A DNA stretch of 39,736 nucleotides, from the sequence record PZ379179.1; one strand, given 5' to 3'. The stretch is from a phage. This document shows positions 21,223-39,736 of the stretch, piece after piece (the first letter of the stretch is position 1; every line of letters starts with the position of its first letter). Position numbers and translations under genes: made by a program. The notes beneath the pieces were generated by a model, which was not told the origin of the DNA, did no database searches, and was given only the letters and a program-made list of their open reading frames with translations.

Positions 21223-21245
21223 ACTAAACTATCACTATAGGGAGA
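21223..21245 (+). promoter_or_regulatory. Phage RNAP promoter (phi10-like, full consensus)
   Basis: CTAAACTATCACTATAGGGAGA, including the GGGAGA initiation region typical of strong late promoters; upstream of the capsid gene. Confidence 0.85.
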
Positions 21246-21347: not shown

Positions 21348-22397
21348 ATGGCAAACGTTCCGGGTCAGAAAGTTGGTACAGACCAAGGTAAAGGCAAATC
21401 TGGTTCCGACGCTCTGGCGTTGTTCCTGAAGGTCTTTGCTGGCGAAGTCCTGACAGCATTCACTCGCCGCTCTGTAACTGCTGACAAGCATATTGTCCGT
21501 ACCATTCAGAACGGTAAGTCTGCTCAGTTCCCGGTCATGGGTCGCACCTCTGGTGTGTATCTGGCTCCGGGTGAGCGACTGTCCGATAAGCGTAAAGGTA
21601 TCAAACATACCGAGAAAGTGATTACCATTGATGGTCTGCTGACTGCCGATGTGATGATTTTCGACATTGAAGACGCGATGAACCACTATGACGTGGCTGG
21701 CGAGTACTCCAACCAGTTGGGCGAAGCTCTGGCTATCGCTGCCGATGGTGCGGTACTGGCTGAGATGGCTATTCTGTGTAACCTACCGGCTGCATCTGAT
21801 GAAAACATCGCTGGTCTTGGCAAAGCGTCTGTGCTGAAAGTTGGTACTAAAGCAGACCTGAACACTCCGGCTAAGCTGGGTGAAGCAATCATCGGTCAAC
21901 TGACCATTGCTCGTGCGAAGCTGACATCCAACTACGTTCCTGCTGGCGACCGTTACTTCTACACCACACCGGACAACTACTCTGCAATCCTCGCGGCTCT
22001 GATGCCGAACGCTGCTAACTATGCTGCGCTGATTGACCCAGAGACTGGTAACATCCGTAACGTAATGGGCTTCGTGGTTGTTGAAGTTCCACACTTGACT
22101 CAGGGTGGTGCTGGGGAAACTCGTGGTGCCGATGGTATCACTATTGCGACTGGTCAGAAGCACGCCTTCCCAGCTACTGCTACTGGTGATGTTAAAGTTG
22201 CTCTGGACAACGTTGTGGGCCTGTTCTCTCACCGTTCTGCTGTAGGTACTGTTAAGCTGCGTGACTTGGCGCTGGAACGTGACCGCGACGTCGATGCTCA
22301 GGGCGACCTGATTGTTGGTAAGTACGCTATGGGCCACGGTGGTCTGCGTCCAGAAGCAGCAGGCGCACTGGTTTTCACAGCGGCGTCAGCGGGTTAA
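21348..22397 (+). CDS. Major capsid protein 10A
   Basis: 349 aa; LALFLKVF.GEVLTAF...SGKSAQFPV...HTEKVITIDGLLTADV...EDAMNHYDV...AILAALMPNAANYAALIDPE...RNVMGF.VVEVPHLT...RSAVGTVKLRDLALER...AMGHGGLRPEAAGA matches T7 gp10A. Confidence 0.97.
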   Translation: MANVPGQKVGTDQGKGKSGSDALALFLKVFAGEVLTAFTRRSVTADKHIVRTIQNGKSAQFPVMGRTSGVYLAPGERLSDKRKGIKHTEKVITIDGLLTADVMIFDIEDAMNHYDVAGEYSNQLGEALAIAADGAVLAEMAILCNLPAASDENIAGLGKASVLKVGTKADLNTPAKLGEAIIGQLTIARAKLTSNYVPAGDRYFYTTPDNYSAILAALMPNAANYAALIDPETGNIRNVMGFVVVEVPHLTQGGAGETRGADGITIATGQKHAFPATATGDVKVALDNVVGLFSHRSAVGTVKLRDLALERDRDVDAQGDLIVGKYAMGHGGLRPEAAGALVFTAASAG

Positions 22398-22660
22398 CGA
22401 CCTTTAAGGCCCTCTCTACAGAGGGTCCTACCTTAGAGACGTATAGTTCTACGGTGGGAACCAGCCTGAAGGTTGACTTCCCTGAGCTTTCAGATGTGAC
22501 CGATTGGTCGCTGCTTGAGGTGACTACGCCTGATGGTGTTAGCTACTCCCGTAGAACCAACAGTCTCTACTTCAAGGCCACCTCTGGCGTGGAAGGTCTG
22601 GTGATTGTTGGGTATGACGGTACGCCTGTGCGTTCCTTCAACGTATCTTTCACAAACTAA
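21348..22660 (+). CDS. Minor capsid protein 10B, predicted -1 ribosomal frameshift product
   Basis: Slippery G_GTT_TTC at 22370-22376 lies 7 codons before the 10A stop. The -1 frame is open from there to 22660 (about 94 extra residues), analogous to T7 10A/10B. Confidence 0.5.
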
Positions 22661-22664
22661 TTGA

Positions 22665-22703
22665 AACCCCTTGGGTGCCTTCGGGTGCTTGAGGGGTTTT
22701 TTG
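22665..22703 (+). terminator. Tphi-like late terminator
   Basis: AAACCCCTTGGGTGCCTTCGGGTGCTTGAGGGGTTTTTTG: GC-rich hairpin plus U-tract, closely resembling the T7 Tphi terminator downstream of gene 10. Confidence 0.85.
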
Positions 22704-22717
22704 CTTAAGGAGGGACT

Positions 22718-22807
22718 ATGGTCCTTATTTACACAGGGTTAGCACTATTCGTCTTATTCTGGGCGTACCTGCTGTCCAGCTCACCGTCTAGCGCCTATGA
22801 CCGTTAA
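22718..22807 (+). CDS. Small hydrophobic ORF (29 aa)
   Basis: ATG with AAGGAGGG RBS just after the terminator; MVLIYTGLALFVLFWAYLLSSSPSSAYDR is one predicted TM helix. Below the track size cut-off. Confidence 0.4.
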   Translation: MVLIYTGLALFVLFWAYLLSSSPSSAYDR

Positions 22808-39575: not shown

Positions 39576-39736
39576 CCTCAAGTCTCCCCATAGGCCCTCT
39601 TTAAGTCAAGACCAAAGGCCCTACCCATAGACCTTCGGTCTAAACTTCAGGTCATTGACTCAAGGTTGACCAAAAGTCATGACGATAGGTCTAGGCTATG
39701 GCTTAGGGAAGGACGATAGGTAGGGACTATTGGTCT
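39576..39736. repeat. Right direct terminal repeat (161 bp)
   Basis: Identical to bases 1-161. Confidence 0.9.

Follow-up and report, generated by a model that had tools for sequence, protein, structure and literature searches.

Our analysis of gene 10 of this phage points to a second, longer capsid protein, 10B, which is very probably made by a -1 ribosomal frameshift at positions 22370-22376, close to the end of the major capsid gene 10A. One gene 10 mRNA would give rise to two capsid proteins, 10A and 10B. The case is built on comparison of nucleotide and predicted protein sequences among related phages. The frameshift itself is no novelty, since features of this kind are known and near-identical phages have it annotated; what is modestly new is confined to the predicted Ig-like, possibly BACON-related phrog_7473 fold of the extension and to its cassette-like exchange at the slip site.

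Gene 10 and its two predicted products

The window, that is the whole stretch of DNA that was analyzed (39,736 bp), is a complete genome of the T7 family, genus Kayfunavirus, with an exact 161-bp direct terminal repeat. Its gene 10 region shares 99.6% identity with Escherichia phage vB_EcoP-U8 and 99% with LM33_P1; both of these phages belong to the genus Kayfunavirus (K1F-like, Studiervirinae). The features discussed below are the following.

21223..21245, plus strand: phage-RNA-polymerase promoter-like 23-mer, actaaactatcactatagggaga, upstream of gene 10
21348..22397, plus strand: gene 10A, major capsid protein, open reading frame of 349 aa, 36.3 kDa
22370..22376, plus strand: slippery heptamer G GTT TTC, Val342-Phe343 in the 0 frame
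join of 21348..22376 and 22376..22660, plus strand: gene 10B, predicted minor capsid protein, 437 aa, 45.9 kDa
22376..22435, plus strand: linker, extension residues 1-20, HSGVSGLTTFKALSTEGPTL, predicted to be disordered
22436..22657, plus strand, -1 frame: predicted Ig-like beta-sandwich, extension residues 21-94, phrog_7473
22663..22702, plus strand: Tphi-like intrinsic terminator, hairpin followed by a T6 run, with CCCC at 22667-22670

The 10A product matches the Pfam family PF21703 (Gp10A-like, E 6e-105), which places it in the T7 gp10A family, and in the PDB it matches T7 10A (2xvr, E 9e-145) and 9vvq (E 1.6e-213). These capsid-body structures end at query residue 344-345. Upstream of the gene lies the promoter-like 23-mer, which includes an exact TCACTATAGGGAGA at 21232-21245 and has four more copies with 2 mismatches on the plus strand, against 0.3 expected. 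Given its likeness to the T7 promoter consensus, we take it to be a promoter, the counterpart of T7 phi10.

The end of the 10A frame reads GCA CTG GTT TTC ACA GCG GCG TCA GCG GGT TAA. The preliminary description of this sequence had placed the heptamer 7 codons before the 10A stop, and so it is: the TTC is codon 343 of 349 and the TAA (22395-22397) follows 7 codons later. It had also noted a -1 frame open for about 94 codons up to 22660 and ending just before a Tphi-like terminator, which agrees with what we found. Between 22322 and a TAA at 22658-22660 the -1 frame has no stop, which leaves 94 sense codons after a slip on the heptamer (22376..22657), and the terminator hairpin starts 3 nt past the 10B stop. 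Only 1.7% of shuffles of this 282-nt stretch were free of stops, and its other two frames contain 6 and 9 stops. The heptamer in itself is not significant, as GGTTTTC occurs in 2 copies genome-wide where about 4 are expected; the case therefore rests on position, frame and conservation. A capsid isoform of roughly 47 kDa had been anticipated in the same description: a larger species is indeed predicted, but its computed mass is 45.9 kDa. The predicted junction peptide of 10B is YAMGHGGLRPEAAGALVFHSGVSGLTTFK, and the peptides predicted from its extension are ALSTEGPTLETYSSTVGTSLK, VDFPELSDVTDWSLLEVTTPDGVSYSR and ATSGVEGLVIVGYDGTPVR.

Conservation of the slip site

We compared 24 related loci, comprising 11 GenBank records (Peacock, U8, KKP_3263, KP32, CR8, K11, Kc166A, EV136_1, K1F, T7 and T3) and 13 IMG/VR contigs. 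In all loci other than T3 (23/23), GTTTTC stands in one and the same frame with the -1 frame open behind it, and the base preceding GTTTTC is G in each of them with the sole exception of contig L016, which reads A GTT TTC. The heptamer is thus common to T7, K1F, K11, KP32, CR8 and 18 Kayfunavirus-type loci, bar the first base in L016. From GTTTTC to the 10A stop there are 3-6 codons among these 23 loci. The T7 gene reads GTG GTT TTC AAA GTG GAG TAA, with 3 codons between TTC and stop compared with 6 here. At the equivalent position T3 has C CCA AAG, and there too the -1 frame is open downstream. Across all 24 loci the -1 frame remains free of stops for 44-100 codons beyond the end of 10A, and the +1 frame closes after 3-17.

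We further inspected codon usage by aligning 13 diverse capsid genes codon by codon. Among 196 degenerate columns with a conserved amino acid, 35 were codon-invariant. Only one of the 15 conserved valine columns was invariant at the codon level, namely the GTT of the heptamer, and the TTC of the heptamer was codon-invariant likewise. The third positions of the Ala, Gly and Ala codons directly upstream vary freely. Codon invariance of GTT and TTC is the mark of selection on the RNA sequence itself; judged by this alignment, the nucleotides of the slip site are kept beyond what the protein needs.

Reading of the extension in the -1 frame

A tblastn search with the 94-aa extension matched 455 phage records, with identities falling to about 42%; they come from Kayfunavirus, Przondovirus, Caroctavirus, Ningirsuvirus and from Pectobacterium and Cronobacter phages. 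Wherever we inspected the locus, gene 10 stands immediately before the match. Pairwise dN/dS values in the -1 frame (Nei-Gojobori) ranged from 0.13 to 0.45, and among 14 close relatives the variable columns were distributed over codon positions 1, 2 and 3 as 26, 17 and 48. The motifs VTDWS, RRTNSLYFK and YDG are near-invariant. By these substitution patterns, the extension is evidently under purifying selection in the -1 frame, across genera.

The likeliest alternative is that the downstream frame is an independent, unfused 68-aa "hypothetical protein" with its own initiation at GTG 22454. Gene callers annotate a separate open reading frame in many if not most GenBank relatives, and the database homologues are all short stand-alone reading frames of 49-87 aa. 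The starts so called are nevertheless inconsistent between relatives, giving products of 54-87 aa, and we found no in-frame start that is conserved in the extension. The GTG at 22454, extension codon 27, is the first in-frame start candidate in the window, and it is missing in L012, in CR8 and in the L014 lineage. It has no Shine-Dalgarno sequence, and none that convinced us precedes any start candidate before the folded domain, whereas the small open reading frame at 22718 and gene 11 are preceded by AAGGAGG and AAGGAG, respectively. Moreover, amino-acid similarity and the open frame run from the heptamer onward, ahead of all the candidate starts, and initiation at codon 27 would fall after the first predicted beta-strand (residues 21-26) and so delete it. 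We consider an independent gene improbable. In the sequences compared, no expression route other than a -1 shift that joins the extension to 10A is consistently available.

Predicted fold and family of the extension

An AlphaFold2 model built on a 20-sequence alignment gave the extension a mean pLDDT of 81. Residues 1-20 were modeled as disordered (pLDDT 46-52), and residues 21-94 as a seven-strand beta-sandwich (pLDDT about 90). The sequence of the linker differs between lineages, and the frame is open through it in all of them. The extension is accordingly predicted, from this model, to be an Ig-like beta-sandwich preceded by a linker of about 20 aa.

Among the PHROGs, the extension falls in phrog_7473 (E 6.7e-37), a family of unknown function. 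Neither the extension nor any of the 20 homologues scanned had a significant Pfam family, Big_2 (PF02368) included, and no PDB entry was found to cover the extension; weak PDB matches to carboxypeptidase and Rab proteins were dismissed as spurious. In a Foldseek comparison with viral models, a homologue from Pectobacterium phage PP81, named "minor capsid protein", came first (E 6e-9); BIG2, Ig-like and decoration proteins ranked next. A profile search against 1.84 billion protein representatives found few relatives outside T7-like phages. Most matches to large proteins in that search were confined to 25 residues of repeat proteins built on the "LYF..DG..ELWKYDG" pattern and were set aside as motif coincidence. 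The sole credible outside match was a 398-aa BACON-repeat protein (E 1e-12 over 5 stretches), and hhalign against one BACON repeat returned a probability of 83% (E 8e-6). A direct Pfam match to BACON (PF13004 or PF19190) was found neither for the extension nor for the 20 homologues. The phrog_7473 extension is possibly related to BACON domains, and we treat this as a lead suggested by profile similarity and not as an assignment.

In the metagenomic relative L013, the C-terminal half of the domain has been lost by deletion, and the domain may therefore be dispensable. This loss, the small share of stop-free shuffles and the dispensability of T7 10B could all be read in favor of a non-expressed remnant or chance open frame, with 10A as the only product; purifying selection in exactly the -1 frame across genera, the confidently predicted compact fold, the 455 records that hold the domain, behind gene 10 wherever inspected, and the many stops in the other two frames make such a reading highly implausible.

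Terminator and RNA structure around the slip site

The terminator behind the extension forms a 17-bp hairpin (22663-22700) with a UUCG loop (dG -25.2 kcal/mol, z -3.86) and closely resembles T7 Tphi. The only 3' effect on frameshifting reported for T7 acts at long range, is unexplained and involves a CCCC situated over 200 nt downstream in the terminator (PMC5009743). Here a CCCC (22667-22670) is part of the terminator stem, some 290 nt away from the slip site; it is expected of any Tphi-like hairpin, so its presence proves nothing about stimulation.

Closer to the heptamer, we found no stable structure 5-9 nt past it. The 104 nt that follow the heptamer fold with z = -2.3, but this structure starts only about 21 nt downstream. 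The consensus computed with RNAalifold for 15 relatives was weak (-4.5 kcal/mol, 11 pairs). When the 60 nt downstream were set against 60-nt segments taken from the capsid gene of the same phage, they were unremarkable in 9 of 10 lineages, KP32 alone standing out. By eye, hairpins particular to one lineage or another can be made out 28-38 nt downstream, without statistical support. A scan of 22250-22800 against Rfam returned no relevant family. The GGN codon that might serve as a Shine-Dalgarno-like stimulator, 8-10 nt upstream of the heptamer, varies freely (GGC, GGA or GGT) and is thus unconstrained, and we rejected this candidate. Overall, no convincing RNA stimulator was found, which matches the situation in T7.

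Proposed mechanism

Under the proposed -1 ribosomal frameshift, most ribosomes would pass G GUU UUC and terminate 7 codons later, at the UAA, yielding the 349-aa 10A. A minority would slip one base back on the heptamer. The A-site tRNA-Phe would move from UUC to UUU and re-pair perfectly, and the P-site tRNA-Val would move from GUU to GGU and re-pair imperfectly. The slipped ribosomes would then translate 94 codons of the -1 frame before terminating at 22658-22660, just ahead of the Tphi-like terminator. The resulting 10B would consist of the HK97-fold capsid body through Phe343, a flexible linker of about 20 residues and a 74-residue Ig-like beta-sandwich. By co-assembling with 10A, it would decorate the outer face of the head with Ig-like domains in sub-stoichiometric number. 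We infer both the occurrence of the slip in this phage and its rate, as well as the incorporation of 10B into virions. By analogy with what has been proposed for other phage Ig-like domains, the domain may bind weakly to glycans or surfaces. Among the observations counted against the frameshift were the imperfect re-pairing in the P site and the A GTT TTC of L016, along with the failure to find a stimulator, the ordinary genome-wide count of the heptamer and the truncated domain of L013.

Nearly the same product would result from transcriptional slippage, should the phage RNA polymerase drop one U in the T4 run of the site, and the computed results do not directly separate a slip of the ribosome from one of the polymerase. 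A run of four Ts, however, falls well below the homopolymer lengths at which polymerases slip efficiently, and what is conserved is the full heptamer in a fixed frame, which matters to ribosomes and not to a polymerase. The identical site of T7, an X_XXY_YYZ variant with G_GU in the place of X_XX, is classed as -1 ribosomal frameshifting with tRNA re-pairing (Atkins et al. 2016, PMC5009743), and about 10% of ribosomes shift there (PMC1635266). We regard polymerase slippage as very unlikely and the ribosomal shift as by far the better account of 10B.

Unrelated extensions behind the gene 10 slip site

The -1 programmed frameshift of T7 gene 10A/10B was reportedly described by Condron, Atkins and Gesteland in 1991; PMC5009743 is a review that covers it. 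Our phage resembles T7 in the identical heptamer, in its frame and in its place near the 10A stop. The capsid proteins are homologous (70% identity), and in both phages the -1 open reading frame ends before a Tphi-type terminator that contains CCCC. The extensions, in contrast, have no homology, and the similarity of the two sequences stops at the heptamer. That of T7 is a charged, low-complexity tail of 56 codons with no Pfam domain; that of our phage has 94 codons with a predicted Ig-like domain. The preliminary description had remarked on an extension longer than that of T7, and the extra length is explained by a different, separate domain-sized module, similar in size to that of T3, and not by elongation of the T7 tail.

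Phage Ig-like domains added by frameshift are said to form a class recognized by Fraser et al. in 2006, with T3 10B and Lactobacillus phage A2 among its members, and the C-terminal extension found here, with its predicted Ig-like beta-sandwich, has the defining feature of that class. In T3 and phiYeO3-12, too, a -1 shift near the end of 10A adds an Ig-like extension of domain size (89 codons). T3 differs in that the slip occurs at C CCA AAG (Lys), and the T3 domain belongs to Big_2 (E 4e-10), whereas the extension of our phage belongs to no Pfam family; BLASTP found no similarity between the two extensions. According to Atkins et al. (PMC5009743), the extension of T3 is Ig-like and that of T7 is not, and Ig-like domains have been appended repeatedly by frameshifting in phages.

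K1F, the type species of the genus, has the same heptamer and a capsid protein 95% identical to that of our phage, but it carries a short tail of the T7 type in place of the Ig-like module. This tail is charged and of low complexity and comprises 48 codons after the slip, 44 of them past the 10A stop. Similarity between the two phages stops exactly after GGTTTTC, which makes the heptamer a mosaic boundary. The phrog_7473 extension (91-96 codons) is found in our phage, CR8, K11 and KP32. Going by these alignments, at least three unrelated classes of extension evidently stand behind the frameshift site. A bolder proposal, which we put forward tentatively and with more doubt than confidence, is that phrog_7473 might be a possibly BACON-related Ig-fold binder of glycans or mucin, with the heptamer serving as a fixed dock for the exchange of capsid-display cassettes across genera of Studiervirinae.

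Precedents and significance

Some close relatives already carry the annotation proposed here. In Peacock (MK903279), with 98.5% DNA identity over the query, the same join is annotated as a minor capsid protein, and its extension differs from that of our phage at 4 of 94 residues. Citrobacter phage CR8 (HG818824) shares the heptamer, and its 10B, with an extension homologous to ours (about 50% identity), is annotated as a product of -1 frameshifting. The GenBank note for CR8 states "matches in mass spectrometry analysis" and is silent on whether peptides of the extension were seen; the genome announcement of CR8 mentions neither 10B nor mass spectrometry, so this claim comes from the GenBank note alone. 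We found no difference in kind between these two cases and ours, and both are database annotations rather than published experiments. In Kluyvera phage Kvp1, 10B was confirmed by MS/MS, with a -1 shift at TTTTCA (PMC2579914). In K1F, fusion of GFP to g10b in the -1 frame yielded fluorescent virions (PMC6277420), a functional verification of the -1 product in that phage. The K1F and Kvp1 results and the CR8 note lend indirect support to a larger capsid species in virions. The suggestion in the preliminary description that a T7-type -1 frameshift is conserved here is well supported by the shared heptamer, frame and position, by the selected -1 extension, by the annotated joins of relatives and by these K1F virions.

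Most other relatives have the extension entered as a separate hypothetical protein, or the 10A open reading frame labeled "minor capsid protein". Most deposits of Kayfunavirus and Przondovirus would then mis-model the extension or 10A, and the gene is properly modeled with a join placed at the heptamer. Binding to host or mucosal glycans has been proposed for T3 10B and T4 Hoc. The Ig-like domain of our phage, if it binds in this way, could influence the mucosal persistence of therapeutic Kayfunavirus phages, which is speculation at this point. For engineering, the 10B frame is an established low-copy site of capsid display in T7 and K1F, and K1F 10B has been used for display of an adhesin (PMC13370021); in our phage, this same site is predicted to hold a natural folded domain.

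Sequence around the slip site

Besides the heptamer at 22370-22376, near the end of gene 10A, GGTTTTC occurs only once more in the whole genome, on the + strand at 1848-1854. The related IMG/VR contig L016 (IMGVR_UViG_2974609768_000001) differs at the slip site, which reads A GTT TTC (GCA GTT TTC) at positions 1899-1905, and the homologous extension behind it comprises 103 codons. P-site re-pairing at this variant would be even poorer, a hint that the essential part is the slip on U_UUC in the A site.

A GC-rich hairpin lies 28-38 nt 3' of the heptamer and differs from lineage to lineage, being found at 22409-22429 in the window (GGCCCTCT-ctac-AGAGGGTCC) and at equivalent sites in the related locus L014 and in phages CR8 and KP32. 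The CR8-type and L014-type hairpins are stems with a UUCG loop, and that of KP32, the only one of these lineage-specific hairpins to reach significance against background, has a 9-bp stem. At such a distance they are too far 3' for a canonical stimulator.

Region between the 10B extension and gene 11

Past the Tphi-like terminator, a strong Shine-Dalgarno sequence (AAGGAGG) precedes a further small reading frame:

22718-22807, + strand: 29-aa hydrophobic ORF MVLIYTGLALFVLFWAYLLSSSPSSAYDR, between the Tphi-like terminator and gene 11

Of the loci compared, only phage vB_EcoP-U8 (L002), L010 and the IMG/VR contig L013 have this ORF in detectable form, and it was not detected in Peacock or the remaining ones. 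The ORF has the look of an insert, variable between phages, that encodes a small membrane peptide.

L013 (IMGVR_UViG_2974604219_000001) also carries a deletion of roughly 160-200 nt at ~2159-2200 (window equivalent ~22534-22690). It takes out the Ig-like domain's C-terminal half together with the 10B stop codon and most of the stem of the terminator, and the -1 frame continues past the deletion into the small hydrophobic ORF. This suggests either that the phage can do without the Ig-like domain and the terminator or that the contig was misassembled.

Annotation and genome-wide features

Annotation of gene 10 is inconsistent in GenBank relatives (e.g. MT862763, OK210074, MH172261): some place the 'minor capsid protein' label on the 10A ORF; others list the extension as a separate 'hypothetical protein' or give the name 'minor capsid protein' to the extension.

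One motif is present in 5 copies vs 0.3 expected:

17409, 20247, 21232, 26013 and 38971, all + strand: TCACTATAGG-type motif

All five are presumably phage RNA polymerase promoters. Finally, positions 1-161 are repeated exactly at 39576-39736, and this 161-bp direct terminal repeat at both ends identifies the window as a complete linear T7-like genome.
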